From a virus: DNA of 64,000 nucleotides. The notes beneath the pieces are model-generated. The model was not told the origin of the DNA. It ran no database searches and worked only from the letters and a program-made list of their open reading frames with translations. Each line of letters opens with the position of its first letter. The first letter of the stretch is position 1. Location: positions 7,810 to 71,809 of IMG/VR virus record IMGVR_UViG_3300037882_003535; one strand, written 5' to 3'. Of the stretch, positions 2,887 through 52,975 are shown piece after piece. The translations under genes were made by a program, and so were the position numbers.

Positions 2887-3086
2887 GTGTACTTAGCTTG
2901 AAAAGCTTTCAGTGAAAGCATCTTAAGATTTTTTGTGTCACGTAGCTTAAAAAGCAAAACCTTAAGTACACTTGTCTCAAACGAAATAATGCGGGTTAGC
3001 CAATTTATTGTGACAGTTAAGTACACTTTTTGTCACGCTAAAAACGCTAAAACATTGATTCTCTCGTGACACCAATTTAAGTACAC
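2887..3086. repeat. cluster of four (T)TAAGTACAC boxes (operator- or iteron-like)
   Basis: boxes at 2887-2895(-), 2962-2971, 3017-3026 and 3077-3086 in an AT-rich ORF-free region, interspersed with GTGACA/TGTCAC. Confidence 0.75.
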
Positions 3087-3139
3087 TCATTTTTTGTGTC
3101 ATTTTGAGTTTGCTTGCTGAGACAGTGAGACTAGATGAG

Positions 3140-3180
3140 CAAAAGTAAACCCGATCGAATTTCGATCGGGTTTACTTTTG
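3140..3180. terminator. perfect 20-bp-arm inverted repeat (probable bidirectional terminator)
   Basis: CAAAAGTAAACCCGATCGAA-T-TTCGATCGGGTTTACTTTTG. Confidence 0.6.
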
Positions 3181-3384
3181 GAAAGTTTTTGCGATTTTTA
3201 TAAGTTGTTGGAGGTCTTCTTCGGAAAGGTTCTCGGTTATTTTTTGGAGACGTTTCCTTAGGCGATCGAAATTCGATATACCTGGACCACGCTTACGCGG
3301 TGTTTGCGAGCTTGGCTCGGCTTCACTCTCGCTCTCCGTTGTTTTCTGTATATCGTGGACGTTGACGGCTTTTTTCCCGTCCAC
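3172..3384 (-). CDS. small helical protein overlapping the regulator gene
   Basis: 70-aa ORF with an amphipathic C-terminus ending at the hairpin; overlaps 3258..3785 by 127 nt. Confidence 0.4.
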   Translation of the reverse strand: MDGKKAVNVHDIQKTTESESEAEPSSQTPRKRGPGISNFDRLRKRLQKITENLSEEDLQQLIKIAKTFQK

Positions 3385-3785
3385 GCCTCGATAACCTCCG
3401 CAATCTTGTTTCCGGGGACTGCCCCTTTATTGTCTTGCATTAATCGCAGGACTGCATCCTCCGTCCCGGCTTCGGCACATTCTGCTAGCCACCGATCGCC
3501 AATGTCTTCCAGATGACTGGAGTTGATCTTGTCGTTTTCCCTCGCTTCGACCGAGTACTTCAGGCAAAACTCCTGATATCGGAGCCGAATCATCATTAGA
3601 AAGAATTGTCGCTGGGTGAGCGATCGGGTTTTGGTGCGACCGTTTGCATCCACTAACCCGGCCTGAAGTCGCCAGATACCCCAGGTTTTCTGGTGGGAGA
3701 TTCGAGCACCCCACTCTTCCAGCACCTTCCGGGCGTCCTTTGAGGCAATCCATCCAATTTCTCCGTCGAGGTCTTTTACCCTCAT
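3258..3785 (-). CDS. putative DNA-binding regulator/initiator (HTH-like segments)
   Basis: 175 aa, C-terminal IAEVIEAWTGKKPSTSTIYR HTH-like motif; divergent from the 4031 operon and flanked by repeated boxes. Confidence 0.6.
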   Translation of the reverse strand: MRVKDLDGEIGWIASKDARKVLEEWGARISHQKTWGIWRLQAGLVDANGRTKTRSLTQRQFFLMMIRLRYQEFCLKYSVEARENDKINSSHLEDIGDRWLAECAEAGTEDAVLRLMQDNKGAVPGNKIAEVIEAWTGKKPSTSTIYRKQRRARVKPSQARKHRVSVVQVYRISIA

Positions 3786-3808
3786 AGCCGTCTTACCTAA
3801 ATAGCCTA

Positions 3809-3943
3809 GTGTACTTAACAGGATTGTACGCGGCGATCAAATAAAAGTCAAAGCCTCGGAAATTCAAGGGTTTTAGGCTCTAAAGAAAATAAAGTGTACT
3901 TAATGCTTGACAGGATTAAGTACAGTGTCTTAAATTAAGTACA
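3809..3943 (+). promoter_or_regulatory. sigma70 promoter overlapped by four TTAAGTACA boxes
   Basis: TTGACA 3907-3912, TAAATT 3931-3936; boxes at 3809-3818(-), 3894-3903(-), 3916-3924, 3935-3943. Confidence 0.7.
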
Positions 3944-4030
3944 TGAAAGCGCGACGCCTCGGAAAGACGAGGGCTGGACCCCAGGCACGGGGCGGAAGGC
4001 TATTTTGTCCCATCTATTTCTAAAATCACC

Positions 4031-4813
4031 ATGCAAGATCTGCTCAAACGACTTGATATTGAAAATGCCACGATCGGGCATCTAAACTCTACGCTTCAGC
4101 GAATCGATCGATCGCCTGAAGACTTTCCAGAAGGGGAAGAACTGGGACCTCTGGCTTACGAAGTTTCGCAGACGATGAAAAAGAGTGCGATCGCGGTGCA
4201 ATCGAAAGGGTTCACTCCGACCTCCACGAAATCGAAGGCTCCCCAGCCGAAAGTGATCGAAGGCAATCCACCTGTTCAACCGGAAGCGCCGATCGTTTCT
4301 GAAGTTGACTTGACTGGTCAAATTGACTGGGCTTCCTTAAGTCCAGATCAACTGGTTCAAATGGAAAAAGACTTGTCCGATCGGATTGCTCGTGAGGAGG
4401 CCATTGCGAACGGACGTGCTTTGCAGAAGCGTCTACTCGAACTCCAAGGCAAAAATGCTGCGGTTGAAGGCGAGTCTCTGGAGCTTGACACTCAGTTGTT
4501 AGACCAGAAGGCTGAACTTGAAAAAGCCCGAACACTCTTAGCTGTGCGTCGTCAAAGTGAAGACACTATTTTGTCTCTCACCCGAGAGGCTGCGATCGAA
4601 ATGGCAAACGATAATGTCGGTCGGTCGATCGCGGCGATCGATTTGGGAAAGTCGGTGGTGAAACGGACACTTCTTCCGGTCGAGCTTGGCGTTCGTCGAG
4701 CGATGCAGCGGCAATCCGAGATGAACAATTCCGGAGCGGAAATCTCCGCTCGAACAATGCCTCTCTTGAACGGGGGATTCGAGCAAAAGGAGATGCAGAC
4801 GATCGATCTCTAG
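4031..4813 (+). CDS. coiled-coil hypothetical protein
   Basis: 260 aa, long heptad-rich central region. Confidence 0.8.
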   Translation: MQDLLKRLDIENATIGHLNSTLQRIDRSPEDFPEGEELGPLAYEVSQTMKKSAIAVQSKGFTPTSTKSKAPQPKVIEGNPPVQPEAPIVSEVDLTGQIDWASLSPDQLVQMEKDLSDRIAREEAIANGRALQKRLLELQGKNAAVEGESLELDTQLLDQKAELEKARTLLAVRRQSEDTILSLTREAAIEMANDNVGRSIAAIDLGKSVVKRTLLPVELGVRRAMQRQSEMNNSGAEISARTMPLLNGGFEQKEMQTIDL

Positions 4814-4856
4814 TCTCCGTCAAACTTGCAAACCTTATTGATTTTCTAGAGCAATT

Positions 4857-5039
4857 ATGAGTTTTTCACAAGTCCGGCTATCTCTGGATACGGCAAGAGC
4901 AATCTTTCGGGACGCAACCATCGATCCCATCGAAATTGGCGGGAAAGTGGTTGCCTACCGAGGCGTTTTCAAAGGGCATACCTACGAAAATCCAGTGCTT
5001 TATTTGCTGGCTCAAATGATGGTGGAGGGAAATGTCTAA
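4857..5039 (+). CDS. hypothetical small protein
   Basis: 60 aa; TAATG coupling to the next gene. Confidence 0.65.
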   Translation: MSFSQVRLSLDTARAIFRDATIDPIEIGGKVVAYRGVFKGHTYENPVLYLLAQMMVEGNV

Positions 5040-5302
5040 TGACTCATTCTGAAGAAAAAACGATCGGACGAATCACGTTCACAACAGAAGCTCAGGATGC
5101 TCGATCGAAGTTAAATCTTTGGCTTACGATGGGTTCCCTCTGCTGTCTGGGGGTTCTCACGGGGGGTGGTTTTTATCACTATGTGGTGATGCCTGGGCTT
5201 GTCCATAACGCCTATCTTCATGGCACGATTGAGGGCTACGAGTGCGGAACTTACAAAAATGCCGATGTCAAAGACATTCCCGATCGTTGTATCGGAGGTT
5301 GA
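5039..5302 (+). CDS. single-TM membrane protein
   Basis: hydrophobic stretch LWLTMGSLCCLGVLTGGGFYHYVV. Confidence 0.7.
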   Translation: MTHSEEKTIGRITFTTEAQDARSKLNLWLTMGSLCCLGVLTGGGFYHYVVMPGLVHNAYLHGTIEGYECGTYKNADVKDIPDRCIGG

Positions 5303-5304
5303 GT

Positions 5305-5526
5305 ATGGAAGGATTGATTAAATCACCCACATTTGAAATTAAAATTCGCCTTCACGAATCAATCAGGGCTGGGGCAAAACTGACCCTTGATAGCCATCCC
5401 GGAGTTTTTGTCGTTCTCGATATTACTCATCAATTGATTTCGACTCCCCACGATCGATCTCGAACCCATGAAGTTAGGACGATCGTGAATGTTAAGCAAA
5501 TTGATACTACTCCCCGTAGAGAATAG
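5305..5526 (+). CDS. hypothetical small protein
   Basis: GGAGG RBS, ATG 5305, 73 aa. Confidence 0.6.
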   Translation: MEGLIKSPTFEIKIRLHESIRAGAKLTLDSHPGVFVVLDITHQLISTPHDRSRTHEVRTIVNVKQIDTTPRRE

Positions 5527-5621
5527 CTTTTATTGCCGTCGAGCTAGTCAATCGATCGTACGGCGCATTTGTAGATCGACTGCATCTAGTCAAGAAAACC
5601 TCAAGCCTTAAACCTCAAGCA

Positions 5622-5780
5622 ATGAATACTGAAACTCTGGAAATCAATCTCGCTGAAAATTACTTCTACTGCCAGATCTGTAACTGGTCTCTTTTTATAA
5701 AGAACAAGGATGCTGATGGGTTTGGAGGAGTGAGTTTAGTTTCCCCGAAAGCTAAATTTTACGATTTTGGTTTCATCTAA
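5622..5780 (+). CDS. hypothetical 52-aa protein (CxxC)
   Basis: manual translation MNTETLEINLAENYFYCQICNW...; below the ORF-track cutoff. Confidence 0.4.
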   Translation: MNTETLEINLAENYFYCQICNWSLFIKNKDADGFGGVSLVSPKAKFYDFGFI

Positions 5781-5825
5781 AAAGAAAAAAGACGATCGTC
5801 CTTTATTCCCATCCCCTATCTGCCA

Positions 5826-6206
5826 ATGAATGAAATCACTGATTATCTGAACTCTCAACTAATTCGAGCATTGTCCGATCGGTTTGGATCAAAACTTGAC
5901 TCCCTTACCGCGACGGACAAGCTTGATTTATCGCATTTGATTTTGACCACGATCGCGTGGATTGATAATGAGCAAGAATCAAAATCTCTTGCCATGACGG
6001 CTGAAGTTCACGGAAGAGTTTATCCGGAGTCTCCGGGGACTCCTCAGGCTATTGCGTTAATTGATGCCTATTGTCCATCGGCTGAAGAGCTATTCGCTGT
6101 GAGTGCAATTTTAAATCATCACTTGCATAAGGGTATCTATGCCGAATATGCTCCAGTCCACGAAGGCGATCAAATTCTTGATTCCCTTAATACGATGTTT
6201 CGGTGA
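5826..6206 (+). CDS. hypothetical protein
   Basis: 126 aa; GTGA overlap with the next gene. Confidence 0.75.
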   Translation: MNEITDYLNSQLIRALSDRFGSKLDSLTATDKLDLSHLILTTIAWIDNEQESKSLAMTAEVHGRVYPESPGTPQAIALIDAYCPSAEELFAVSAILNHHLHKGIYAEYAPVHEGDQILDSLNTMFR

Positions 6207-6661
6207 TTGAAATGAGAACACTTAATCCCGCCTTATCAGTATTTGGATGGTGCGTTGCTGCTGTCTCGGTTCTTGGGGTGTTTGCGATGGTGGGTCACTC
6301 TGGGTCTAAGGCTCAAAGTGATGTCGAAATAGCAGCAGCAGACGCCCGCGCCCGAGAACGATACAACCATTGCATCCGCTTTGAAGTGCCGATCGTCCCC
6401 AAGATGATCGTCACAACTGATAAAAATCGCCCACTGGCAGAGGGCACTGACATTTGTGATGACTTTGGTTCTACGGCTGAAGTCAAGTTAGTAAAAAATC
6501 AGGAAGGTGGCGTTATTTCGATCGTAGGAGCGATCGATCGAATCCATGACTACAAATCCTATTTGGAGGAAAAGAAAAAACGACACGGAACGCTCGATAT
6601 CAAGGGCGAAAAACGCCAGTTAAACTATCAGACCAAACCCAATCCGGAGGAAAGTCCATGA
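6203..6661 (+). CDS. single-TM protein with a probable extracytoplasmic domain
   Basis: N-terminal TM helix, then a soluble domain with a Cys pair; ATGA coupling. Confidence 0.75.
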   Translation: MIEMRTLNPALSVFGWCVAAVSVLGVFAMVGHSGSKAQSDVEIAAADARARERYNHCIRFEVPIVPKMIVTTDKNRPLAEGTDICDDFGSTAEVKLVKNQEGGVISIVGAIDRIHDYKSYLEEKKKRHGTLDIKGEKRQLNYQTKPNPEESP

Positions 6662-7512
6662 CCGCTGCTAAATCGTATTTCTCGAATACTAAAAAGACCA
6701 CGACCACGACCACGACGGCTCCGCAAAATTATGTTTCGCCTCAGGCAGGCATTGAACCAGAACCCGAATTGACCGGATTAGCTAAACTAATGTCACCGAT
6801 CGAAAAGTTCGGTAAAACTTATTTTTGGTTGACTGATTCTTCTCCGAAAGAAGGCGGCGCAAAATATATTTTGTATTTGCTTTCGCTATATTGTGCGGCA
6901 ATGTCCTGGGAGAGCATGTACGCCTCGTTCCCCGTCGCTTTGGGCATTCGTGACAAGGCGGAAAGCGTTAAGTTTTTGCCAAAAGTTGGGATTAATGATG
7001 GCGCGAATCCAGCAAACCTCCTTAATCCTATGGAGTTAGTTGCGACTGTTACCAATATGTTTCCAGCATTGTCTCCGGTCCCATTACCTAAAGTCACGAA
7101 GACTTCTCCACAGGCTTTGCTTGATCCAACCTTTTGGATTGCTGGGGTGATGTCGCTGGGAATCGCGACTTATCAGGCAAAGGCGGTCCGATCGATCTCG
7201 ATCGCAGCTCGGAAGCGTCGGCTTGATGCTGTCGCCTCTTATAAGACGCCCAAACTCGATCCCAATTCGTTGGCGATCGCCAAAGTCCGCAAGAAAGAGT
7301 TCGAGAATGCGGGGATGGGCAATTACGTTACTTCAGGGTTAATGATTGCGGGTTCCTATGCGATCGAGGCGGTGTCCTTTGCGGCTTCGATCGCGGGTGG
7401 TAACTCGAACGGTGTCGCGGTATTTATTAACGGTCTTGGCTCCGTTTTTGGGGCTGAGTCGTTCTACAATGCGACGCTCGACGATGACCAGCGAGAGCAG
7501 AAAAAAGCGTAA
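6658..7512 (+). CDS. multi-pass membrane protein
   Basis: 284 aa with 3-4 hydrophobic segments. Confidence 0.8.
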   Translation: MTAAKSYFSNTKKTTTTTTTAPQNYVSPQAGIEPEPELTGLAKLMSPIEKFGKTYFWLTDSSPKEGGAKYILYLLSLYCAAMSWESMYASFPVALGIRDKAESVKFLPKVGINDGANPANLLNPMELVATVTNMFPALSPVPLPKVTKTSPQALLDPTFWIAGVMSLGIATYQAKAVRSISIAARKRRLDAVASYKTPKLDPNSLAIAKVRKKEFENAGMGNYVTSGLMIAGSYAIEAVSFAASIAGGNSNGVAVFINGLGSVFGAESFYNATLDDDQREQKKA

Positions 7513-7519
7513 TAAAAAC

Positions 7520-7548
7520 GAAGGCGATCGCCGTAAACGATCGCCTTC
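7520..7548. terminator. HIP1-based hairpin
   Basis: GAAGGCGATCG-N7-CGATCGCCTTC. Confidence 0.5.
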
Positions 7549-7569
7549 ATCATTATCTCGGAGTGAGAC

Positions 7570-9393
7570 ATGTCTAATTTAGTCTTGAAAGAGGCGTTTA
7601 ATCAATATGATGTCGAACGAGTTTTGAAGGCTCGGCTCGACAACCTGAAGCGTCTGGGTGACGCGGACAAGTCGAGCTTAGGAGGACAGCAACTTTCTGG
7701 CTCGATCGCCTTGGCATCGGCTGCTACGATCGCGTTCCTTGGTGCCCAAGCATTCGCCTTCCCGGTGGGATGCTTGGGTTTATTCATGTATGGTCAGGCG
7801 ACTGTGCGTGAGGGAATGCTGACGGGCAGTCTTCGTCCCATCCCACTGTCTGGAGCTGATGTCGGTGCCATTGCGCTCTCGTCCGATCGATCGACTAGAG
7901 GTGATGTCGAGCGGAAGCGGGTGACGGGCTACAACTACCTGAATGCCTTAGAAAAAGCGGAATATTCGTTGATCAATAATTTCGGGCGAGTTGTGGCGCA
8001 GGTTTTACAGCGCATGAACCCATCCGATCGATCGGCGGAATGGGTTCGGGTTGTCGATATTTTTGATGACCTTTATGGCGATTACATCAAGGAATCCCCT
8101 AGAGCTTTGATTGGTCAGTTGGACCCCAAGGAGTTGTTTTCGTATCTCACAGCGTCTCCTGAAAAGTTGCATCAATTGGCGACGGAAGCAGCAGCCGAGG
8201 CTATCGTTGATGTCCCCGCCCAAGCGGTAAAGCCCTCCGTTTTTAAGTCGTCGGTTTTGGCAGCTCCGACAACGATTGCTGATGCAGTAGTTCAGCACCA
8301 AAACGCCTCGCCAACGGGATTGATGCGAGATCCTGTGAGTCCGATCGTCACTCAATCCAATATGGTAGCCGTCGCTCCCTCTTCTGCTGTAATTTCCGGG
8401 AACAAAGCAGAAATCCATAATTTCGCGATCGATTTAGGCCGCAATCCTCAGTCTGCGATAATCCTTGGGACACCTGGGGCTGGGAAAGGGATTAGCATTT
8501 CTGTCGCAATTCGTGAATTGCGACAGAAATATCCCTCGGTTAAAATCATGATGGTCGATCCAAAAGGCGACCCAAAAGAGCGAGGATACTGGAATTCTCA
8601 TGTCGATATTCTAGAGAGTAGAGACATTTTAATGATGAATCCGATCGCAGCGGCGGAATGGATGATGAACTGCGTTGAAGCGTATCGAAATCTTCCAGCT
8701 CCCAAACTCCTTATTTGGGATGAGCTACTCTCGACAAACTCCACATTAAAGGCGGCTCATAATCCAAACCCCAAAAGGGACGCAGAGCCGTTCCCTTGCC
8801 TAACTGATTTTCAGCACTTTATTTCGACACATCTTTCTCTCGGCCCATCAAGAGGCATTTGGGTTTGGGGGATGTCGCAGTCTGCCAATCTTAAGGATTT
8901 GGGGCTGAATGGTGGTCAATTAAGTACCTCTCGATTGATTGCTCTAGTTAGCCCTACGAATCGTGGGGCCGTTGAAGCTTACTGGTCTACGAACGCGATC
9001 GTCGCGCCAAAGGGTGGATATGACGAGATTGAATCTTTGATGGCAATGTCACCAGTCGGGCGGGCCGTTTACGATGGTAAATTCAAACGCTGGTATCCGG
9101 TGGCAAAACTGGAAAATCATTCAGGTTTCGATCGGGACAATGCTGATTGGAATAATCTCGACGCATCAGCCCCGATCGCCCCTCAACCCCAAGAATCCAC
9201 TTGGGTTGCTGAAGGCCGATCGGAAGGTTCTGCTGAGTGGGATTTGCTGATGCAGTCGATCGCGGCTCAAGCATTAATTTCGTCAGGACTCGATCGGCAA
9301 AATCTAGTTCACGCTGCAAAGTTGGCGAAGGAGCTGGACGAAAACGGTCAGAGAAACGAAGCTTTTGAACTATTGAAACAGCAACTGCCATGA
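7570..9393 (+). CDS. membrane-anchored FtsK/HerA/VirD4-family P-loop ATPase
   Basis: N-terminal hydrophobic segments; Walker A ILGTPGAGKG, VDPKGD, Walker B LLIWDE, GMSQS motif. Confidence 0.8.
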   Translation: MSNLVLKEAFNQYDVERVLKARLDNLKRLGDADKSSLGGQQLSGSIALASAATIAFLGAQAFAFPVGCLGLFMYGQATVREGMLTGSLRPIPLSGADVGAIALSSDRSTRGDVERKRVTGYNYLNALEKAEYSLINNFGRVVAQVLQRMNPSDRSAEWVRVVDIFDDLYGDYIKESPRALIGQLDPKELFSYLTASPEKLHQLATEAAAEAIVDVPAQAVKPSVFKSSVLAAPTTIADAVVQHQNASPTGLMRDPVSPIVTQSNMVAVAPSSAVISGNKAEIHNFAIDLGRNPQSAIILGTPGAGKGISISVAIRELRQKYPSVKIMMVDPKGDPKERGYWNSHVDILESRDILMMNPIAAAEWMMNCVEAYRNLPAPKLLIWDELLSTNSTLKAAHNPNPKRDAEPFPCLTDFQHFISTHLSLGPSRGIWVWGMSQSANLKDLGLNGGQLSTSRLIALVSPTNRGAVEAYWSTNAIVAPKGGYDEIESLMAMSPVGRAVYDGKFKRWYPVAKLENHSGFDRDNADWNNLDASAPIAPQPQESTWVAEGRSEGSAEWDLLMQSIAAQALISSGLDRQNLVHAAKLAKELDENGQRNEAFELLKQQLP

Positions 9394-9710
9394 ATAGACG
9401 AGATTTTCTAGGACACACCGATCGGGAGGTCGTCCGATCGACCCCCTACTGCCTTCCATTCGATTTCGTGCTACCTCCGGTGGGGTTTCAAGACTCTATG
9501 CCCGCCAGTGCGATCGGGGCCGTCCTGAAGCGCTGTTATCAACCAGACCTGCCTCAAGTGGGATGGAAGATTGAACATGCTGGGCATTGGTGGGAGGGCA
9601 TTGGTGGGAGGTTGTGGCGATCGAACAAAGATTGGCGACGAAGGGAAGCCGCGATCAGGATTATCTACCTGTGCGCGTTTGCAAATATCTGGAGCCGATC
9701 GGATGAGTAG
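9390..9710 (+). CDS. hypothetical protein
   Basis: 106 aa, ATGA coupled to the ATPase gene. Confidence 0.6.
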   Translation: MNRRDFLGHTDREVVRSTPYCLPFDFVLPPVGFQDSMPASAIGAVLKRCYQPDLPQVGWKIEHAGHWWEGIGGRLWRSNKDWRRREAAIRIIYLCAFANIWSRSDE

Positions 9711-10326
9711 AATATTCAGATTGTCGCCTTGTTTTCTGCCCTCGGTGAAGCTTGAGGATTGCGATCGGCTTCCTCGGAAACCTGGGGTGTATTATGCGAT
9801 CGAGCCTAGCAACCCATGGAAGCCGTTGTATATCGGGATGGCGGGGAACATGCGATCGCGGTGGCAAGATCACCACAAATACGATCGACTGGCGCGACGT
9901 GGGGCGGTGCGGTTGCATTACCGACCGACCTTCACTCGCTCCGGTGCTGAATATCTCGAATCCTGCGATATTCGGACTTTTGACCCACCGATGAACGATA
10001 AGTTTGAATCCTGCCCGATCGCTCCAGTGTTCTGGGTGCTCGATCGGATTTGGGACGGGGCGATCGCCTTGGGATTGTTTGGTGTGGGAGCGGTGCTGAT
10101 GTCGGCATTTACTCCATCGAAGTCAGTACCGTCGATCGAAGTGACTCAACTCGCTAATATCCGAAAAACGCCGAATGGCGTGGTGATTTGCGAGGTAAAG
10201 AAGGGCGATCGGTTGCCGCTGGTTTTGGCGTCGGGTGAGACTGAAGTGAAGGCGCGATCGAAGAGTTGGATTCTGGTGAAGGCTTGTGGTGTCAATGGTT
10301 TGATTTTTAAGGAGATGACGAAGTGA
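9703..10326 (+). CDS. GIY-YIG nuclease - TM - SH3b-like fusion
   Basis: PGVYY...LYIGMAGNMRSRW...E...PPMN (GIY-YIG), TM AIALGLFGVGAVLM, then ANIRKTPNG..VKKGD..WILV..G..GLI (SH3b-like). Confidence 0.75.
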   Translation: MSRIFRLSPCFLPSVKLEDCDRLPRKPGVYYAIEPSNPWKPLYIGMAGNMRSRWQDHHKYDRLARRGAVRLHYRPTFTRSGAEYLESCDIRTFDPPMNDKFESCPIAPVFWVLDRIWDGAIALGLFGVGAVLMSAFTPSKSVPSIEVTQLANIRKTPNGVVICEVKKGDRLPLVLASGETEVKARSKSWILVKACGVNGLIFKEMTK

Positions 10327-10589
10327 TTAATCGAATAATCGAAACGGGCAAGATGTCGGCGATCGGGGTGTGGAATTCTCCACCGATCGAACTGTTGACG
10401 GCTGCGGTGGTGGTTCCGGTGACGATCGTAGGCTCCTTTTGGATTCTCCAATGGGTTAGACCTGCAATGATTGTTTTGGGTGTTGTCGCAGGGGTTGTTT
10501 TTGGGGTGACTGCGATCGTTAAGATTATTTATTTATGGAGTTGCGATCGGCGTTATTTCGGTGCTGTGCGAAGAGATTTAAAACAATAA
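10323..10589 (+). CDS. small 2-TM membrane protein
   Basis: 88 aa, two hydrophobic helices. Confidence 0.7.
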   Translation: MINRIIETGKMSAIGVWNSPPIELLTAAVVVPVTIVGSFWILQWVRPAMIVLGVVAGVVFGVTAIVKIIYLWSCDRRYFGAVRRDLKQ

Positions 10590-10590
10590 G

Positions 10591-10923
10591 GTGTTACTTA
10601 TGGCGAAAGGCTTTGAGACTCGAACTGCTCACGATTCTTCTGTCTCCAGTATTTTTCAAATAATCCGACGGGGATGGCGTGACTGTGGTTCCAAGACCTG
10701 CATTGTGCTAATTCCTCGAACGAGCGATCGACTGGTGACGGAGGCGATCGAGATTTTCAAACAGGCTAACCCTGGGTTTGCTGCGGCCATTCAAGATCCG
10801 CCTCCAGGCATTCCCGGACGGATGACGGTTTCTATTTTTGAGATTGGTTCAATGGAACATCGATCGTGGCTGACTCATTCCACGTTTGGGAATACTGCTG
10901 ATATCGTTGATTGGTCGGACTGA
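10591..10923 (+). CDS. hypothetical protein
   Basis: 110 aa, last gene before the terminator. Confidence 0.65.
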   Translation: MLLMAKGFETRTAHDSSVSSIFQIIRRGWRDCGSKTCIVLIPRTSDRLVTEAIEIFKQANPGFAAAIQDPPPGIPGRMTVSIFEIGSMEHRSWLTHSTFGNTADIVDWSD

Positions 10924-10937
10924 TCGGGGCATAAGGT

Positions 10938-10973
10938 AAAAGCGATCGAGTAGAGAAGGCTCGATCGCTTTTT
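10938..10973 (+). terminator. rho-independent terminator
   Basis: AAAAGCGATCGAG-N9-CTCGATCGCTTTTT. Confidence 0.75.
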
Positions 10974-11007: not shown

Positions 11008-11081
11008 GGCGGGATAGAGCAGTCTGGTAGCTCGTGAGCCTCATAAGCTTAAGGTCGTAAGTTCAAATCTTACTCCCGCCT
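11008..11081 (+). tRNA. tRNA with anticodon CAT (Met or Ile2), CCA not encoded
   Basis: GGCGGGA/TCCCGCC acceptor, GAGC/GCTC D stem, TGAGC-CTCATAA-GCTTA anticodon arm, GTAAG-TTCAAAT-CTTAC T arm. Confidence 0.92.
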
Positions 11082-11084
11082 CTT

Positions 11085-17684: not shown

Positions 17685-18020
17685 TCAGTCGATCGAAAGT
17701 AAGGCTGTTGCCTTCGATATTGCACTCCGAAGCTTCTGATTTTCGATTGCTAGGCGCTGACACTCGATCGTTAGTCGATCGTTTTCGGATTGAAGTCGAT
17801 CGACGCTAATTGTAGCTTTGTCCAGTTCTTGGGGCCTGAATTTATTGACGAGTTGCAGGCGGTTTTTGAGGTTGCATTTTTGCAACATGTGGTGAACATG
17901 AGTTTCAACTGTCCGTTGCGTGATATGCAATTTGAGTGAAATATCGGAGTTTGAAAGCCCGTCAGAGAGAAGCCTCAAGACTCGTTTTTCTGCGGGTGAG
18001 ATTTCGTCAGGGTTTTTCAC
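17685..18020 (-). CDS. LuxR/GerE-type HTH + coiled-coil regulator
   Basis: ISPAEKRVLRLLSDGLSNSDISLKLHITQRTVETHVHHMLQK; start uncertain. Confidence 0.8.
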   Translation of the reverse strand: MKNPDEISPAEKRVLRLLSDGLSNSDISLKLHITQRTVETHVHHMLQKCNLKNRLQLVNKFRPQELDKATISVDRLQSENDRLTIECQRLAIENQKLRSAISKATALLSID

Positions 18021-18087
18021 GATCGGCGGTGGATATTTCCCACAGGGTTCCCGATCGGGCATCCTCCCAAAAATCCCCGATCGCACC

Positions 18088-20943
18088 ATGGCTCGACTGA
18101 TTCACCGAGGCGAATTCGCCAGTATTCGCAATAGCTTAATCATTCCGACCTATGGCGGAGGTCGCCTGACCCCACAGGATACGGCGTATCTGGAGCATGG
18201 TGGTGGGCGATATCATGCGCTGGATGCATTGCTTGATGTGTTTCGAGATGCCCATGCGGGAGCCGTAGCGCAGCAGCGGATTGGGGCCGTAATTGGGCGA
18301 GAGTGGAAGCTGAAAGAGGGCGGCGAGAGTGCGATCGATCTCAAGGCGCGCGATCTCTGCAAGGCGCAGCTCGACGCATTAGAAATCCCTTCCGCCTCCG
18401 ATGACGATAATGCGATCTATTCGCTGAATACTGGATTAGATGCGGCTTGCACCAATCTGCTGTGGGCGACGTTCTTTGGCATGTCTGCGAGTGAGGCAAT
18501 CTGGGATCAGCAAGGGAAAGAGGTGATTCTGCAAGATTTACGATCGCGGGATGTTCGGCGGTTTGCGTGGGTGGCGGGGGAGTCGAGTGGGTACAAATTG
18601 CGGCTACTGACTCGCGAAAATCCCTATGATGGGATCCCCGTCCCTGCACGTAAGTTTTTGATTCATCGTTTTTTCTCATTGCCGTTGGAAGATCCGTATG
18701 GTGTGGGGATTGCGGCGCGGTTGTTTTATCCCGTTTTTTATAAGCGCCATGCGATTAAGTTTTGGTTGATTTTTGCTGAGAAATGGGCCTCTCCGACCGC
18801 GATCGCGAAGCATCCGACGGATGCGAATGAGAAGCAGGTGGATGACCTGCTGGAGATGATTAACGCGATCGCCTCTGATACGGGGGTGGCCATTCCTGAT
18901 ACGGTATCGCTTGATTTCTTGAAGGCTCCGGGCGGTGCGATCGACTCCTACGAAGGGCTGAAAAAATTTTGCAATGAGGAAATCTCAAAGATTGTCATTG
19001 GGCAGACTGCGACGGTGGATCAGTCCCAAGGAGGCGGGAGTCGAGCAAGAGACCAAGTTGCTGACGGTATTCGGGTGGAACTGGCTAAATCTGATTCTGA
19101 CCTGCTCAGTGGGACCATTAACCGACTGCTCGCGTGGATGACTTGGGCGAACTTTGGTCCCGACGCGAAGGCTCCTCGACTATGGCGTGAGTTCCCCGAA
19201 TTAGAAAATAAGGTCAACCGATCGGAGGAAGCTACCGTAATTTCGACGCTGACGAATGCAGGATTCAAACCTAAAAAAGAATGGGTTGAAAATCGTCTTG
19301 ATGTTGAACTGGAAGACGTACAGGATGCGATCGCGCCGGAGAACCCAGACACTCCACCGGATATTGGTAAATTGCTCGGTGGTGAGCCTGCACCGGAGAA
19401 TCCAGAGGAAGCGATCGAGCCTCCTCCCGCTTTTGAAGAGGTGGAGTTTGGTGGGGTGTCGAAGGTTTTGAAGTGGAATGGGTTGGCGATCGGGCTTGAA
19501 GTAATGCCGGGTGAGTCTCGGTGGAAGGGGACGGGCCATGAGCGAACTCTGACGGCGGCTTATGGTCACATTCGTCTGCATCAAGGTAACGATGGTGAAG
19601 CATTGGATTGCTATGTATCGCCTGCGGTCTTGGATGAGGGTGGGAGCGATCGGATCTTCTTGGTGTCGCAGTTGGATGCGGCTGGGGCGTTTGATGAAGA
19701 GAAGTTGATGCTTGGGTATGCCGATGAGAAGGCGGCGCGATCGGCTTATCTGGCAGAAATGCCCAAACAGTTTTTCGGGGATATTGTCGAGCTTGAGTTG
19801 GAGGATTTAGAAGAATTTAAGCTCGATTTTGCGAAGACTCAGAAGAATTGCAAGAAGGGTTATTCGTGCGGGTTTAGCTGCATTCGGACAGCGTACAAGT
19901 GCAAGTCTCCCATGAAGGGGCAGGCTCGGAATTATGCTGATTATTTGGTTGGTGCGGTTAAGCGAATTGGTATTGAAAAGATGCCTCAACGCCACGCCTC
20001 GGATGCTCGCGCAATGGGCTTAGGGTTTGAGCATTCAACTACTGGGCAAGGAATTCTATTCCCGATCGCTCCGCTCTTGAAAGTTTCGGACAAACAGAAA
20101 GGTGAAGCGAAATTCACTCGAAGCTCAATTGAGAAACAGATTCTTAAACAAAAAGAACTCATTAAGAGTGAAACCGATCGCAAAGATCCGGATGCGAATC
20201 AAATCGCTAGAATGCAGCGAAGAATTAAGCGAATGCGCGATCGTGTCAAAGAATTGAAGGCAATAGAAGAAACGGGAGCCATCCCCCGATCGAGCCTTCG
20301 AGGGACTGAAATTGAAGTCCCGGCGAAACCCAAAGCGCCTAAATCAGACGTTCAAGCTCAAAGCGACAAAGTTAAAGCCAGTCTCGATCGTCAGGACGTT
20401 AAAGCCAAAAAAGAGGCTGATTTGGACCGACAGAAGCAGCAAGAGCAGAAGGACGCATTCGATCGATCTCAAGGTAAAGCAACCCGCGCTGAAGTGGTAG
20501 CGAAATTGCCTGATATTTTGAAGCCGTCTAAATTAACGAAGTCTTACGAAGACGCTCGTGATGAATGGTCTAAGGCTGTTCAGGACGGTTCTAAAACAAT
20601 GAAGGGAAAGAAGATTAAAGCTTCTGGCGATCGGGTGGAATATCTTGATTATGGGGGCGGTGTGGGCATTAGCTCAGTACAAGTCGGACGGACAACTGAG
20701 AAAGCTTTAATTGAAACGCCTACAGGTCAAATCATTGCCCGAATCCCGAAAAACATGAAGGCGACAGAGGCGGCTTTTGTTGCTTCTCAAGTATTGTCCA
20801 AGAATATCAAAGAAGGCTTGGCTAGTTCGGATAAAGGGACGAAAGCCGCTGCGGAAGAGTCGGTGCGATGGCTCCGTGATTTTGTGGACAAACGATCGAA
20901 AGGTCAACTGCTCGTCCCTCCGAAATACTCAGGAGAGGGCTAG
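18088..20943 (+). CDS. Mu gp29-like portal (DUF935) fused to an inorganic pyrophosphatase domain and a Cys-rich/basic C-terminal region
   Basis: PYGVG..ARLFYP..YK....FWLIFAEKW and CNEEISKIVIGQTAT (DUF935); YGHIR..GNDGEALDCYV and FDEEKLMLG (InPase). Confidence 0.85.
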   Translation: MARLIHRGEFASIRNSLIIPTYGGGRLTPQDTAYLEHGGGRYHALDALLDVFRDAHAGAVAQQRIGAVIGREWKLKEGGESAIDLKARDLCKAQLDALEIPSASDDDNAIYSLNTGLDAACTNLLWATFFGMSASEAIWDQQGKEVILQDLRSRDVRRFAWVAGESSGYKLRLLTRENPYDGIPVPARKFLIHRFFSLPLEDPYGVGIAARLFYPVFYKRHAIKFWLIFAEKWASPTAIAKHPTDANEKQVDDLLEMINAIASDTGVAIPDTVSLDFLKAPGGAIDSYEGLKKFCNEEISKIVIGQTATVDQSQGGGSRARDQVADGIRVELAKSDSDLLSGTINRLLAWMTWANFGPDAKAPRLWREFPELENKVNRSEEATVISTLTNAGFKPKKEWVENRLDVELEDVQDAIAPENPDTPPDIGKLLGGEPAPENPEEAIEPPPAFEEVEFGGVSKVLKWNGLAIGLEVMPGESRWKGTGHERTLTAAYGHIRLHQGNDGEALDCYVSPAVLDEGGSDRIFLVSQLDAAGAFDEEKLMLGYADEKAARSAYLAEMPKQFFGDIVELELEDLEEFKLDFAKTQKNCKKGYSCGFSCIRTAYKCKSPMKGQARNYADYLVGAVKRIGIEKMPQRHASDARAMGLGFEHSTTGQGILFPIAPLLKVSDKQKGEAKFTRSSIEKQILKQKELIKSETDRKDPDANQIARMQRRIKRMRDRVKELKAIEETGAIPRSSLRGTEIEVPAKPKAPKSDVQAQSDKVKASLDRQDVKAKKEADLDRQKQQEQKDAFDRSQGKATRAEVVAKLPDILKPSKLTKSYEDARDEWSKAVQDGSKTMKGKKIKASGDRVEYLDYGGGVGISSVQVGRTTEKALIETPTGQIIARIPKNMKATEAAFVASQVLSKNIKEGLASSDKGTKAAAEESVRWLRDFVDKRSKGQLLVPPKYSGEG

Positions 20944-20981: not shown

Positions 20982-21362
20982 ATGTCACAAGCTCTCCTCC
21001 CCGAACAATCCCAATTAGAAACCGCGATCGAGCGTCAGCTAATGCAGTCGTTAGGCGCTGCTGATTTTGCTGACGAGTTGCCCGCAAACCCCACGCCGGA
21101 ACAACTCGATAAAATGATTGTGCCGATGGTTCGGTACATCCTCCAAGCTGGCGAGAAGGGGTATAAGGACGGCATTGACGAGGTTACGGATAAGGATGGA
21201 AATCCCCCCAGTGCTGAGAATAACTGGCTTGTGGCCGATCGGGGGATTGAGGGGCTATTTATCGATCGGCGTCCGGGTGGCGATCGTACCTTTGAATTCG
21301 TTCTGGAAAACTCTGGGGATAATTGGGGCAAAAGTTTTCAGATGGTCTCTGGAGAGGCTTAA
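20982..21362 (+). CDS. hypothetical head-associated protein
   Basis: 126 aa between the portal and sigma factor; ADFADE motif after a short leader. Confidence 0.7.
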   Translation: MSQALLPEQSQLETAIERQLMQSLGAADFADELPANPTPEQLDKMIVPMVRYILQAGEKGYKDGIDEVTDKDGNPPSAENNWLVADRGIEGLFIDRRPGGDRTFEFVLENSGDNWGKSFQMVSGEA

Positions 21363-21369
21363 TCTATCC

Positions 21370-49508: not shown

Positions 49509-49514
49509 AAAATC

Positions 49515-50867: not shown

Positions 50868-50870
50868 ATT

Positions 50871-52863: not shown

Positions 52864-52975
52864 AGTTTTAAGAAAGATTTGTCTTTTTAGGTGGATCCTA
52901 GGGGTTTTCTCTATTCTTTTTTTGCATTAAGAAATGCTATATAGGCATCATCCCCAGTTTCTTAATCTTCTTTTT

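Follow-up and report, generated by a model that had tools for sequence, protein, structure and literature searches.

Chromosomal FtsK has four membrane helices and a gamma domain. In TcpA, the FtsK-like coupling protein of the Clostridium perfringens plasmid pCW3 (PDB 6o1w/6o1x/6o1y), one ATPase domain follows a membrane anchor at the N-terminus; its partners in a type IV secretion system (T4SS) are a relaxase, a VirB4-like ATPase, and a VirB6-like protein. PMC4447253 describes Streptomyces traB/spd operons as sets of small membrane-protein genes whose stop and start codons overlap, with clt repeats located directly after traB in pSVH1 and pIJ101. The MPF_C class of T4SS, that of cyanobacteria, is defined in PMC4027160 by VirB4 plus VirB3/6/8/9/10 homologues, with pCC7120alpha as the model plasmid. 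The operon analyzed here was compared with these systems; no description of its module family was found in the literature searched.

The operon and its carrier genome

The operon is located in a 64,000-nucleotide stretch (the window) of a complete 71.8-kb Mu-like myovirus genome, and family searches with the ORFs confirmed the tailed-phage context of the module. The same genome codes for a full-length CyRepA1 plasmid replication protein; therefore, the virus reads as a phage-plasmid. In line with what was originally seen, no relaxase, T4SS, or VirB protein was found among the 42 window ORFs of at least 150 aa, the 12 operon ORFs, or 16 further ORFs that included the 7.8 kb by which the record extends beyond the window, so that none lies just outside the window among the ORFs scanned in the 71.8-kb record.

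A single operon at 4031-10923 was also borne out, with 12-13 co-directional, translationally coupled ORFs on the plus strand that overlap by 1, 4, 4, 4, 8, and 4 nt at six junctions. Of the 13 ORFs tested, 11 had a codon-model log-likelihood above 0 in the frame that was called, the exceptions being the long form at 5242-5526 and the ORF at 9390-9710. The first gene (o1, 4031-4813, coding score 0.171) encodes a soluble protein of 260 aa with a charged, helical-looking middle part (residues 96-215 are 67% E/K/R/D/Q/L/A by composition, with one proline), the putative coiled-coil protein of the original prediction, for which family and PADLOC searches found no relatives or family. It is followed by five small ORFs without a family match in the same searches, namely o2 (4857-5039, 60 aa), o3 (5039-5302, 87 aa, one moderately hydrophobic segment), a probable 73-aa ORF behind GGAGG (5305-5526), o4 (5622-5780, 52 aa), and o5 (5826-6206, 126 aa). 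Downstream of the ATPase gene are o9 (9390-9710, 106 aa), which had a weak coding signal (-0.071, yet the highest of the six frames) and no relatives in family searches, the nuclease-like o10, o11 (10323-10589, 88 aa), and the last ORF, o12 (10591-10923, 110 aa, soluble). A terminator-like hairpin (10938-10972, plus strand) of 14 bp with a CGATCG core closes the operon, and a tRNA-Met gene (11008-11082) lies beyond it.

Membrane segments were scored by Kyte-Doolittle hydropathy over 19 residues, with 1.8 or more taken as firm. Firm segments were present in o6 (6203-6661, one), the ATPase (residues 54-72), the nuclease-like protein (119-137), and o11 (two strong helices); hydropathy was weaker in o3 (1.46) and o7 (6658-7512, five peaks of 1.06-1.55). 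The original prediction of at least four membrane proteins holds if these two weaker cases are counted and fails without them.

A sigma-70-like promoter (3907-3936, plus strand; TTGACA, 18 nt, TAAATT) precedes the operon. It is a consensus match only, in a region with 14 such matches versus 14.7 expected, and is credible because it is positioned inside operator-like TTAAGTACAC sites. This motif, with at most one mismatch, occurs eight times in the 64-kb window versus 1.0 expected, all within 2887-3944 in clusters at 2887-3086 and 3809-3944. The count was reached in 0 of 100 shuffles, no other 8-mer in the window is as strongly clustered, and no copy was found in the remaining 7.9 kb of the record. 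The second cluster brackets two divergent promoters, that of the operon, with copies just 5' of the -35, within the spacer, and across the -10, and a promoter-like consensus match on the minus strand (3851-3823) on the side of a divergent 175-aa ORF (3258-3785, minus strand). The array may serve the operon as a set of operators or as another kind of cis site, and the 175-aa ORF may encode the operon's regulator; this ORF gave insignificant HTH hints only (Pfam HTH_32, E 0.043; WH_Rok, 0.19), and no PDB relative was found.

The ATPase and its conserved partners

The ATPase o8 (7570-9393, plus strand, 607 aa) begins with a helical hairpin (hydrophobic stretch 46-72) and a helical domain to ~210, followed by a disordered linker (213-276), the ATPase core (278-545, pLDDT > 90 in the AF2 model), and three C-terminal helices. 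Across 66 relatives, Walker A (G300-K306) and Walker B (D384-E385) show little or no variation, and a hydrophobic segment occurs in the first 150 residues of 31 of the 32 homologues of at least 300 aa. The fold matched VirB4 (VIA Z 13.9), EccC (13.1), TcpA (12.8), EssC (12.6), FtsK (12.4), and HerA (11.9), with generic RecA-like folds at ~10.5; the top Foldseek match in the PDB was TcpA (E 1e-4). Local hhalign of a 66-sequence o8 profile against cyanobacterial FtsK_SpoIIIE gave a probability of 59% (P 9.4e-5, 147 columns) and brought together Walker A, (I/V)DPK, Walker B, and (S/T)QxP. VirD4 aligned over 41 columns, HerA reached 4%, and comparisons between the known families scored lower (25%, 7%, and 2%). 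The Pfam FtsK_SpoIIIE model was touched by 4 of the 66 relatives and was not reached by o8 itself. Sequence and model together support the identification of o8 as a divergent FtsK/SpoIIIE-family ATPase with a predicted N-terminal membrane anchor, and place it in the FtsK-HerA superfamily nearest to FtsK, by small margins (Z gaps within ~1.5, hhalign 59%). The FtsK-like membrane-anchored ATPase that had been proposed is thus upheld by the fold Z-scores, the hhalign motifs, and segment 54-72, and FtsK is favored over VirD4 and HerA; the likeness to TraB is by description only. A family search of the C-terminal 60 residues detected no DNA-binding family or recognizable winged-helix tail.

Together with o6 and o7, the ATPase gene forms a conserved core in fixed order (bitopic protein, polytopic protein, and single-domain membrane-anchored ATPase), which is flanked by small, fast-evolving, translationally coupled ORFs. 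The first member, o6 (plus strand, 152 aa; family F4), has an N-terminal membrane helix (hydropathy 2.18) and then a small domain containing a pair of invariant cysteines; R53, C57, C85, G89, and T91 are invariant in the family alignment of nine sequences, and phmmer matched it to loci L005 (2e-4) and L030/L031 (5e-3). The second, o7 (plus strand, 284 aa), has five moderately hydrophobic segments, only one of which counted as a membrane segment in the locus survey, and stands where the polytopic F3/F6 families do elsewhere. It clusters in F3, with 15-23% identity and phmmer E-values of 1e-4 to 7e-3 to the gene that directly precedes the ATPase gene in L012, L013, L015, L016, L020, and L025. 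Among the 28 loci having upstream sequence, 22 had at least two predicted membrane segments in the first or second upstream gene, and in most of these a bitopic protein of ~140 aa precedes the polytopic gene; the counts include near-duplicates (L013/L015/L016, L030/L031, and L027/L029).

The fold alone does not imply a DNA substrate because EccC-type relatives export proteins. A single-domain EccC/EssC cousin could export small proteins of the operon, or else a wall hydrolase, as might occur in lysis or septal peptidoglycan modification, and the rank of EccC and EssC among the top fold matches, the many co-operonic ORFs of 50-130 aa, and an M23 peptidase in the same gene string of three carriers (L022, the Leptolyngbya BL0902 plasmid, and Planktothrix phage PaV-LD) are consistent with this. 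Such export is nevertheless very unlikely, since the hhalign match is FtsK-type with DPK and SQxP motifs, family searches found no WXG100-like or other secretion family among the small ORFs, and the repeat arrays that follow the ATPase gene in relatives serve no protein-export role. EccC-type ATPases also have three ATPase domains, whereas o8 has one.

These element-specific 8-mer arrays (4 to ~10 copies in two opposed blocks) were found at most 300 bp past the ATPase stop codon in 5 of the 21 loci examined (L003, the second copy of L004, L005, L011, and L034), and their position and form are those of clt/TRS relative to Streptomyces traB. No array was found 3' of the o8 gene. The opposed blocks also resemble polar loading sites, as would suit an FtsK-like pump at the closing septum that reads the element's array as FtsK reads KOPS and clears or distributes element copies, leaving neither daughter cell of a filament without one. 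The FtsK/SpoIIIE kinship of o8 fits such maintenance, as do a ParM-like actin gene that opens Nostocales-type operons together with small ORFs (L013, L015, L016, and L017; Pfam MreB-like_C, 7e-5), ParA/ParB and Rep among the neighbors, and the replication of this phage by a plasmid Rep with no ParA/ParB among the ORFs scanned. On the other hand, host FtsK-family proteins are already present in 15 of the 21 related genomes searched, the periplasm-facing bitopic partner with its two invariant cysteines and the linked M23 peptidase suggest work beyond the cytoplasmic face, and lytic-looking phages also have the module, which makes maintenance distinctly unlikely.

Distribution of the module and its possible role

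With this operon, the phage-plasmid has its own copy of a module carried by cyanobacterial mobile elements, and the core of the module recurs on plasmids, plasmid-like contigs, and tailed phages, so the genes do co-occur elsewhere. The module was found on 22 PLSDB plasmids including pCC7120alpha, 8 of which are typed non-mobilizable. It makes up a large share of the coding capacity of plasmids of 13-24 kb and stands in the backbone of very small plasmids adjoining Rep and Par genes. The plasmid-like contigs contained CyRepA, primase, ParB, ParM-like, and integrase genes but lacked structural genes of phages. The tailed-phage carriers comprise contigs on which terminase, portal, capsid, and tail genes were found, and PaV-LD. 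No deposited phage was found by tblastn with three family members. The genera of all 22 carrier plasmids are filamentous, in contrast to a control search with a Rep protein, whose 249 plasmid matches include at least 61 from unicellular genera. This link to filaments is uncorrected for phylogeny: most matches are from Nostocales, and 7 of the 24 genome loci were placed only to order, phylum, or 'uncultured bacterium'.

The module is tentatively read, with slightly less than an even chance, as an apparatus of the TraB/Spd kind for moving DNA across the cell envelope. This reading is favored because of the FtsK/SpoIIIE kinship, membrane anchor, and conserved membrane neighbors of o8, the carriers, which are plasmids, plasmid-like contigs, and tailed phages, and the linked M23 peptidase, which fits a machine passing peptidoglycan. 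The clt-like arrays in 5 of 21 loci, the filamentous hosts of all 22 plasmids, and the stop/start overlaps and unassignable small membrane proteins, which match spd operons, also argue for it. Against it, TTAAGTACAC is placed on the promoter like operators and unlike a transfer site, this copy lacks a post-ATPase array and a DNA-binding tail, the tie of o7 to F3 has an E-value of only ~1e-4, and phage carriers such as PaV-LD have no obvious need for non-lytic spread. Cyanobacteria are also diderm, and their septal junctions are known to pass only small molecules. Non-lytic spread or segregation of the phage genome along a filament, as originally predicted, is partly supported by the kinship, operon layout, co-occurrence, hosts, and arrays of relatives, and weakened by the missing array, tail, and Spd similarity of this copy. 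In such a mechanism, o6, o7, and o8 would form an inner-membrane complex, and a ring of o8 would pump the element's dsDNA through a channel built by its partners into a neighboring filament cell or touching cell, with no relaxase needed. Such a complex would be similar to Streptomyces TraB plus Spd, or to TcpA plus its membrane partners. In this phage, the module might let a plasmid-like prophage spread or persist along the filament.

The remaining protein, o10 (9703-10326, plus strand; 207 aa from ATG, with a longer TTG form from 9571 in the ORF list), is a probable GIY-YIG nuclease over residues ~17-100. It gave sub-threshold NCBIfam matches to the N-terminal parts of three models (Cho, E 8.8e-6; DEDD/GIY-YIG family, 4e-4; UvrC, 0.013) and no Pfam match, so that, of the membrane-anchored nuclease originally predicted, the anchor is borne out by helix 119-137 (hydropathy 1.89) and the nuclease part by these sub-threshold matches and a PADLOC match to PDC-S14 only. 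A ~65-aa C-terminal domain of unrecognized fold follows. For DNA transfer, this protein would be an accessory particular to this copy, with DNA cleavage or processing at the same site as its possible role. The tethered nuclease could instead degrade foreign DNA that a membrane complex senses or blocks on its way through the envelope, and plasmids, integrative elements, and prophages would all carry such a defense or superinfection-exclusion system since all profit from excluding competitors. All three kinds of element commonly carry accessory systems of this type. Weak PADLOC matches (ATPase to mad8, 5e-5; nuclease to PDC-S14, 5.6e-5), HerA-type defense relatives in the fold list (SIR2-HerA 8woc, Nezha 8j4u, and DndH 7es4), and tight operator control of the promoter, which suits a toxic product, point the same way. 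However, a counterpart of o10 was found beside the ATPase in none of 29 loci, the mad8 match spans only the Walker A-Walker B stretch, and the ATPase profile is far closer to FtsK than to HerA. The backbone location beside Rep/Par in very small plasmids and the post-ATPase arrays, which suggest that the element's own DNA is the thing recognized, also leave defense unlikely.

Relationship to known systems

The core of PaV-LD (HQ683709), likewise a tailed phage of a filamentous cyanobacterium, has the same order and sizes in ORF129L-127L (143 aa, 269 aa, and a 475-aa ATPase). In the string ORF129L-ORF122L, ORF127L is annotated as 'FtsK/SpoIIIE protein' and ORF123L as 'peptidase M23'. The family profile matched ORF127L by hhalign with 91% probability (E 9.8e-7, 198 columns), reaching the C-terminal 'N-x-SG-x-D', whereas the two upstream proteins had no detectable similarity to o6 and o7, and the M23 peptidase is absent from our window. 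No discussion of the PaV-LD ATPase was found in the literature searched.

TcpA shares the topology of o8 and aligned over 274 columns by Foldseek and 211 residues by VIA, but with only 12-16% identity, and its relaxase, VirB4-like, and VirB6-like partners were not found among the ORFs scanned in the record. Chromosomal FtsK/SpoIIIE (PF01580; PDB 2ius, 6t8b) aligned with o8 at Walker A, DPK, Walker B, and (S/T)QxP; unlike it, o8 has one hydrophobic anchor and no gamma domain, and mobile elements encode it together with two membrane partners of its own. On pCC7120alpha, the module and T4SS loci presumably stand apart, judging from gene numbers. This plasmid has both, according to PLSDB typing and its use as the MPF_C model in PMC4027160; unlike MPF_C, none of VirB4 and VirB3/6/8/9/10 was detectable in the module.

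The Streptomyces systems differ in that the proteins beside o8 showed no similarity to any Spd protein or known family in profile and sequence searches, no GntR-type TraR is present here, and this copy has no post-gene repeat array or recognizable winged-helix tail. Their elements also differ from the present tailed-phage carrier and its diderm cyanobacterial host. By the published description of TraB, both have a lone membrane FtsK/SpoIIIE-like ATPase on a small mobile element without a relaxase or T4SS, and, like the spd operons described there, this operon combines diverse small membrane proteins with stop/start overlaps and a tightly regulated promoter, in hosts that are multicellular filaments.

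Operon layout and the three-gene core

The module is encoded on the plus strand by an operon at 4031-10923, which contains 12 ORFs (o1-o12), or 13 if a probable 73-aa ORF at 5305-5526 is included, and six of its junctions overlap, by 1, 4, 4, 4, 8, and 4 nt. A codon model, for which 14 long structural genes of this window served as the training set, was positive for the called frame in 11 of 13 operon ORFs and mostly negative for the other frames; it was negative for the long form 5242-5526 and for the ORF at 9390-9710. A promoter-like site was located at 3907-3936 (plus strand), and a terminator-like hairpin (10938-10972) was followed by a tRNA-Met gene. Firm membrane segments were predicted by hydropathy in o6 (6203-6661; one segment), the ATPase o8 (7570-9393, 607 aa; residues 54-72), the probable nuclease o10 (9703-10326; residues 119-137), and o11 (two segments), whereas weaker peaks were observed in o3 (1.46) and o7 (6658-7512; five peaks, 1.06-1.55). 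In Pfam, PHROGs, NCBIfam, and PADLOC, no operon ORF scored above the curated cut-offs. Comparison of all operon proteins with 29 related loci by tblastn and phmmer revealed counterparts for the ATPase, o6, o7, and, once, o3, and none for o1, o2, o4, o5, and o9-o12, nuclease included. A 19-bp inverted repeat built on two cores resembling GCGATCGC (HIP1, a palindrome typical of cyanobacteria) lies between o7 and the ATPase gene (7512-7556), and may be an attenuator, a processing site, or a mere HIP1 pair.

The original prediction of a single module, to be checked by conservation of its gene neighborhood, held up for a core of three genes (o6, o7, and the ATPase gene), which recurs on plasmids, plasmid-like contigs, and other phages. 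The survey covered 24 species-genome loci, five viral contigs, and five stretches of named plasmids, in which all ORFs of at least 45 aa were clustered by BLASTP; the number of independent loci is smaller because of near-duplicates (L013/L015/L016, L030/L031, and L027/L029). Upstream of the ATPase gene, a fixed order was observed that consisted of a protein of ~130-160 aa with one N-terminal membrane helix (clusters F4/F5), followed by a multi-segment protein of ~200-290 aa (clusters F3/F6). A hydrophobic segment was present within the first 150 residues in 31 of the 32 ATPase ORFs of at least 300 aa. Four of these ORFs were without upstream sequence, and in 22 of the other 28 the first or second same-strand upstream gene encoded a protein with at least two predicted segments. 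The six exceptions were L008-L011, in which family F13 was found, L036, and the window itself, in which o7 exceeds the hydropathy threshold of 1.5 only once. Protein o7 clustered in F3 by BLASTP and matched the upstream gene in six loci by phmmer (1e-4 to 7e-3), and o6 is a member of F4 that has R53, C57, C85, G89, and T91 in common with eight others, in all of which these residues are invariant. An ESM Atlas search with o7 gave no usable match; the AF2 model of o6 (pLDDT 56.7) was too poor to read and Foldseek returned nothing for it at E ≤0.001; at this model quality, no VirB8/NTF2-like fold was recognizable. A complex prediction for the N-terminal 215 residues of the ATPase and o7 scored 0.23 against a mark of 0.32 in a run without controls.

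The o10 protein showed sub-threshold NCBIfam matches to the GIY-YIG-bearing N-termini of Cho (8.8e-6), PRK07883 (4e-4), and UvrC (0.013), and its sequence reads GVYY...YIGMAGNMRSRWQDHH...E...N. GIY-YIG nucleases are characterized by GIY...YIG motifs and conserved Arg, Glu, and Asn residues. No Pfam or PDB match was obtained for o10, and an SH3-like C-terminal domain is unsupported, because there was no similarity to the SH3-bearing protein of L021. Among the 29 related loci compared, this nuclease was specific to the window copy. A putative membrane-helix GIY-YIG nuclease would fit either the processing of DNA at the machine or the destruction of incoming DNA. The latter would suit a module that functions in exclusion or defense, which we consider unlikely. 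PADLOC matched the ATPase to mad8 (5e-5) over residues 293-381 only and detected no other component.

Affiliation of the ATPase

A phmmer search of 1.84 billion representatives identified 408 proteins related to the ATPase at E ≤0.001, of which 276 were found at ≤1e-10 and 78 at ≤1e-30. In a 66-sequence alignment, G305, K306, and E385 were invariant, and G300, G303, D330, K332, E337, G339, D384, G425, Q437, S494, R498, W508, N516, R522, and D523 were at least 90% conserved; Walker A (G300, G303, G305, and K306) and Walker B (D384 and E385) are thus invariant or at least 90% kept. The window ATPase did not match PF01580 at E ≤0.1. When the 66 relatives were compared with Pfam one by one, the generic P-loop family AAA_22 was found in 12 and FtsK_SpoIIIE in four (best 2e-4). 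PDB sequence searches, whether started from the single ATPase or from the profile of 66 sequences, returned P-loop stretches only, those of NifH and Rho.

The AF2 model of the ATPase (mean pLDDT 78.9) consisted of a long N-terminal helical hairpin with a hydrophobic stretch, a helical domain to approximately residue 210, a disordered linker (213-276), a core (278-545) with pLDDT >90, and three C-terminal helices. Foldseek against the PDB ranked TcpA of pCW3 first (E 1e-4), followed by Rho, FtsK, RecA, EccC, HerA, and the STIV packaging ATPase, with TcpA, FtsK, and EccC falling between 1e-4 and 1e-3. The Z-scores in the VIA structure search, which does not depend on Foldseek, were 13.9 for VirB4, 13.1 for EccC, 12.8 for TcpA and Rho, 12.6 for B204 and EssC, 12.4 for FtsK, and 11.9 for HerA; the matches to VirB4, EccC, TcpA, EssC, and FtsK spanned 207-219 residues, and generic RecA-like folds scored ~10.5. 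Because the top matches are tied within ~1.5 Z, the fold places the ATPase in the FtsK-HerA superfamily and no finer. FtsK-HerA packaging ATPases were also among the matches in BFVD, where the best structural match was an uncharacterized protein of the Nodularia phage vB_NspS-kac65v161 (E 4.6e-9).

Profile comparison resolved the affiliation further. Cyanobacterial proteins matching PF01580 (FtsK, n = 12), PF02534 (VirD4, n = 14), and PF01935 (HerA/DUF87, n = 14) were aligned, using the longest open frame per locus, and compared with the family profile by hhalign. The original prediction had called for the ATPase to be compared with VirD4 and HerA; the profile was nearer to FtsK (probability 59%, P 9.4e-5, 147 columns) than to VirD4 (37%, 41 P-loop columns only) or HerA (4%), while the fold alone did not point to a clade. 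As a yardstick, FtsK matched VirD4 at 25% and HerA at 7%, and VirD4 matched HerA at 2%. The FtsK alignment paired Walker A, (I/V)DPK, Walker B, and (S/T)QxP; MVDPK was paired with VDPK, and MSQSAN (consensus isQsp) with the aTQRP of the 12 PF01580 proteins. The motifs (I/V)DPK after strand 2 and (S/T)Q-x-P are hallmarks of FtsK/SpoIIIE. On this profile and motif evidence, the ATPase is best called a divergent FtsK/SpoIIIE-type branch outside the current Pfam model. The prediction of a membrane-anchored FtsK-like ATPase was thereby borne out by the hydrophobic segment at residues 54-72, the hhalign match to FtsK, and the FtsK-HerA fold.

The C-terminus of the window ATPase (80 aa) and those of the ATPases in L003, L004, L005, and L011 matched no HTH family significantly (best HTH_24/AsnC-type, E 0.14, in L004), and a PDB search with the C-termini gave nothing significant; a C-terminal winged helix was therefore not demonstrable by family or PDB search. 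At the other end of the protein, the N-terminal membrane and helical domain (~200-250 aa) was also found joined to a different P-loop domain. The protein P0001 was 58% identical to the window ATPase over the matched stretches (best stretch, query residues 2-385), and its ATPase part has a Walker A motif and otherwise departs from the family consensus in the alignment. Several of the genome matches G035, G166, G291, G130, G357, and G003:C49 cover the first 100-260 profile positions only, in ORFs of 580-810 aa. These sequences point to domain shuffling around a common, putatively membrane-docking part of the ATPase.

Carriers, hosts, and the plasmid replicon of the virus

The ATPase was found on 22 plasmids in PLSDB, from Nostoc (8), Tolypothrix (5), Aulosira (2), Trichormus (2), and Calothrix, Microchaete, Fischerella, Leptolyngbya, and Scytonema (1 each). 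These include plasmids of 13, 24, and 39 kb, and were typed as non-mobilizable (8), mobilizable (7), or conjugative (7). Plasmid pCC7120alpha of Nostoc/Anabaena PCC 7120 carries, at 49437-51257, the homolog WP_010999624.1 ("hypothetical protein") behind genes of 137 and 234 aa. The 13-kb plasmid unnamed6 of Tolypothrix sp. PCC 7910 (L032, 7545-10527) harbors a decayed copy of the module, in which three ORFs (213, 158, and 55 aa) hold the fragments of the ATPase and two ORFs those of the polytopic partner. On plasmid-like contigs, the neighboring genes encoded DUF3854-VapE or primase-type Rep proteins, ParB, a ParM-like actin, CopG-type regulators, and tyrosine recombinases, and no phage structural family was found among the 122 proteins scanned. 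Septal segregation of the element is a further reading of the module, in favor of which such partition-type neighbors count; we regard this reading as quite unlikely.

The core was likewise detected in phages. It was located just upstream of genes for a primase and a gpA terminase, lambda-type portal, capsid, and tail tube in L027-L029, and directly behind tail genes in L030/L031. The Planktothrix phage PaV-LD (HQ683709) contained ORF129L (143 aa), ORF128L (269 aa), and ORF127L (475 aa, "FtsK/SpoIIIE protein") in the order of the core, with three small ORFs and then an M23 peptidase behind them. The family profile matched ORF127L with a probability of 91% (E 9.8e-7, 198 columns); the PaV-LD proteins upstream of ORF127L showed no detectable similarity to o6 and o7 of the window, and tblastn of three family members against deposited phages gave no match. 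L022 and the Leptolyngbya BL0902 plasmid likewise encode an M23 peptidase 3' of the ATPase. Such a peptidase would suit protein export or wall remodeling as the function of the module, which we consider improbable.

Among 401 sampled cyanobacterial genomes, 13 matched at E ≤1e-10, and all 13 are 5.7-8.5 Mb in size. No flanking tRNA genes that could serve as integration sites were found in 12 related loci. A gene matching the CBASS inhibitor Acb3 (3.9e-49) was located at L021:5562-6278, near the chromosomal copy of Leptolyngbya sp. PCC 7375, which may lie in a prophage because of this Acb3-like neighbor.

The original prediction had also raised host morphology, namely a cyanobacterial filament. 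All 22 plasmids came from nine genera, each of them filamentous. As a control, the Rep protein of the phage matched 249 plasmids, and the ten commonest genera listed included Synechococcus (25), Acaryochloris (22), Synechocystis (8), and Picosynechococcus (6), which are unicellular. Assuming that unicellular hosts account for a quarter of such plasmids, the chance of 22 filamentous hosts out of 22 is 0.755^22, or ~0.002. The link to filamentous hosts is suggestive only, because the hits are phylogenetically clumped. Furthermore, 17 of the 24 genome loci were named to filamentous genera or families, and the other seven only to order, phylum, or "uncultured bacterium."

The virus record, of which the window covers bases 7810-71809, has 71,809 bp with direct terminal repeats and is 100% complete according to CheckV. 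Scanning of 42 ORFs of at least 150 aa identified a gpA-type TerL, a Mu-type portal, Mu gp36, a sheath C-terminal domain, and a contractile-system tube protein, as well as a baseplate hub with an M23 peptidase, a gpV OB domain, baseplate J, and a P2-I-like tail protein. Owing to this set of morphogenesis genes, the virus is a tailed, myovirus-like phage, and the predicted tailed phage with its own TerL was confirmed by the terminase, portal, sheath, tube, and baseplate genes. The 7.8 kb of the record beyond the window encode an HTH repressor-like protein, a tyrosine recombinase, and a 1014-aa DUF3854 protein (4.4e-33). The latter (L002:2440-5484, in record bases) was 40% identical over 97% of its length to Tolypothrix and Nostoc plasmid proteins annotated as "plasmid replication protein, CyRepA1 family." DUF3854 proteins are described as cyanobacterial plasmid Rep proteins (PMC10079941). 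The combination of tailed-phage morphogenesis genes with a full-length CyRepA1-type Rep indicates that the virus is a phage with a plasmid replicon, that is, a phage-plasmid. Integration may also be possible because two tyrosine recombinases are encoded, one outside the window (L002:6376-7548) and one within it (51913-52863). The host is a cyanobacterium, as indicated by the excess of the octamer GCGATCGC (40 copies vs. 2.3 expected) and by the relatives found, all of which are cyanobacterial. The sequencing runs listed for the record are DNA only, labeled freshwater metagenome, with no RNA run among them.

Several other features of the virus genome were observed. A tandem array of ~4 units with a 78-bp period occupies the extreme end of the record (63730-64000), with two CGAACTGA-like words per unit; counted across the terminal repeat, it lies ~2.5 kb upstream of the Rep gene and may represent iterons or an origin. 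The Mu-type portal (17920-20943) carries a fused inorganic-pyrophosphatase domain (InPase, 3.7e-27). Two genes past the portal, a 407-aa protein (22111-23334) contains a C-terminal ADP-ribosyltransferase domain (ART, 1.5e-8) and, by analogy, may be a virion-borne effector, for which MuF-type toxin fusions provide a precedent. The phage also harbors two sigma-70 family genes, at 21118-22098 (regions 2 and 4) and 52934-53671 (region 2 only). The leftward arm on the minus strand includes genes for a DUF5131 protein (phage Gp37/Gp68-like, 1.8e-63; 54621-55457) and a PAPS-reductase-domain protein (57092-58351), which may be DNA-modification genes.

Repeat arrays, possible functions, and comparison with known systems

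Repeat arrays were sought as 8-mers with at least four copies in 600 bp in 21 loci, followed by inspection. In five of these, an array started ≤300 bp past the ATPase stop codon: L003 (4622-4750; CAGCGAAC/GTTCGCTG, ~10 copies in two opposed blocks), L005 (4476-4620; ATGGGAAC/GTTCCCAT, nine copies including GTGGGAAC/GTTCCCAC variants, with a second block of 12-bp period), L034 (6252-6420; GCCACACC), L011 (11034-11330; ACGACACC), and the second ATPase copy of L004 (11259-11400; GGCACGAT/ATCGTGCC). The 8-bp repeats form two opposed blocks, with a different word in each element, and the ATPase C-termini differ too. No array followed the ATPase gene in the remaining 16 loci, PaV-LD and all five viral contigs among them, and none was present behind the ATPase gene of the window. 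The most clustered word of the window, TTAAGTACAC, occurred in eight copies (≤1 mismatch) vs. 1.0 expected, all at 2887-3944, i.e., 3.6-4.7 kb upstream of the ATPase gene and on the promoter, with none in the rest of the record. Of these copies, three fall on the promoter-like site of the operon, at its -35, within its spacer, and across its -10; one lies where a divergent 175-aa gene starts, and the next intergenic region holds the remaining four. From this placement, the TTAAGTACAC copies read as a candidate operator set, and they may also be a recognition site for the motor.

The module is a new branch of FtsK-like motors that is carried on mobile elements of cyanobacteria, has membrane partners of its own, and escapes the Pfam models. 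A role in transfer is suggested by the anchored FtsK-type ATPase, two conserved membrane partners, the operon, and three kinds of carrier, together with the repeat arrays and wall hydrolase of some relatives. We tentatively propose, with a little less than even confidence, that the module threads the double-stranded DNA of the element through the envelope to a neighboring cell. The ATPase would assemble into a ring at the inner membrane and thread the DNA through a passage that it forms together with the polytopic partner; the bitopic partner, in which two cysteines are invariant, would face the periplasm, and the DNA of the element would thereby arrive in the adjacent cell. The spread of phage DNA between cells, as originally predicted, is a plausible candidate function, supported in part by the FtsK-type motor, membrane partners, operon, and mobile carriers. 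A broader proposal, possible and rather doubtful, is that filamentous cyanobacteria harbor a relaxase-free, FtsK-motor DNA transfer akin to TraB/Spd, by which plasmids, small integrative elements, and tailed phage-plasmids pass double-stranded copies of themselves, without lysis, from one cell of the filament to the next or to filaments in contact with it; each element would be recognized by an 8-bp array of its own or some equivalent site.

Should the module move DNA, actinomycetes would no longer be the only group with a single-motor (TraB-like) transfer system, and multicellular filamentous growth would be paired with such gene transfer in a second, independent case. The virus could then spread within the host body while cells are not killed, the movement of many cyanobacterial plasmids typed as "non-mobilizable" could be accounted for, and a genetic handle on DNA passage across cyanobacterial septa would be available. 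Even if it serves exclusion or segregation, the family matters: with 408 representative clusters (E ≤0.001) it is large, and neither Pfam nor PHROGs has a model for it. Its presence on plasmids of model strains, such as pCC7120alpha, makes it directly testable.

No relaxase, T4SS, or mating-pair family was found among the ORFs scanned across the 71.8-kb record (mostly ORFs of at least 150 aa outside the operon), and the absence of a relaxase and VirB set noted in the original prediction thus extends from the window to the 7.8 kb beyond it. The NCBIfam model conju_CD1110 matched the ATPase at E 0.025, with 12.9 bits against a cut-off of 325. PF03135 and PF12846 gave nothing in 121 cyanobacterial genomes each, and VirB4 was thus compared by fold only. 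The module is probably not a T4SS, since no relaxase, VirB4, or VirD4 family was found among the ORFs scanned. Membership of MPF_C, the cyanobacterial T4SS class, was set aside because that class is defined by a different gene set (PMC4027160). Genome packaging by the ATPase was also set aside because TerL and a Mu-type portal are encoded by the phage itself. Among described genes, ORF127L of PaV-LD is the nearest, which is annotated and without a study in the literature searched; this search, with gene lists in supplementary files outside it, retrieved no paper on the ATPase family.

The resemblance to the Streptomyces TraB/Spd plasmid transfer system lies in a single FtsK-like ATPase on an element in which no relaxase or T4SS was found. 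Streptomyces spd operons are described as comprising 3-7 genes for small, diverse membrane proteins with overlapping stop and start codons, and clt as direct 8-bp repeats recognized by the ATPase and located at or near its gene (PMC4447253). The likeness to spd is one of layout, not homology, with six overlapping junctions and four to six ORFs with hydrophobic segments and no assignable family, and five related loci match clt in the position and form of their 8-bp repeats. Because its partners are unrelated, a winged helix is not demonstrable, and the window copy has no clt-like array, the module is not filed as a member of TraB/Spd, yet by analogy TraB/Spd is the known system that it would work most like.
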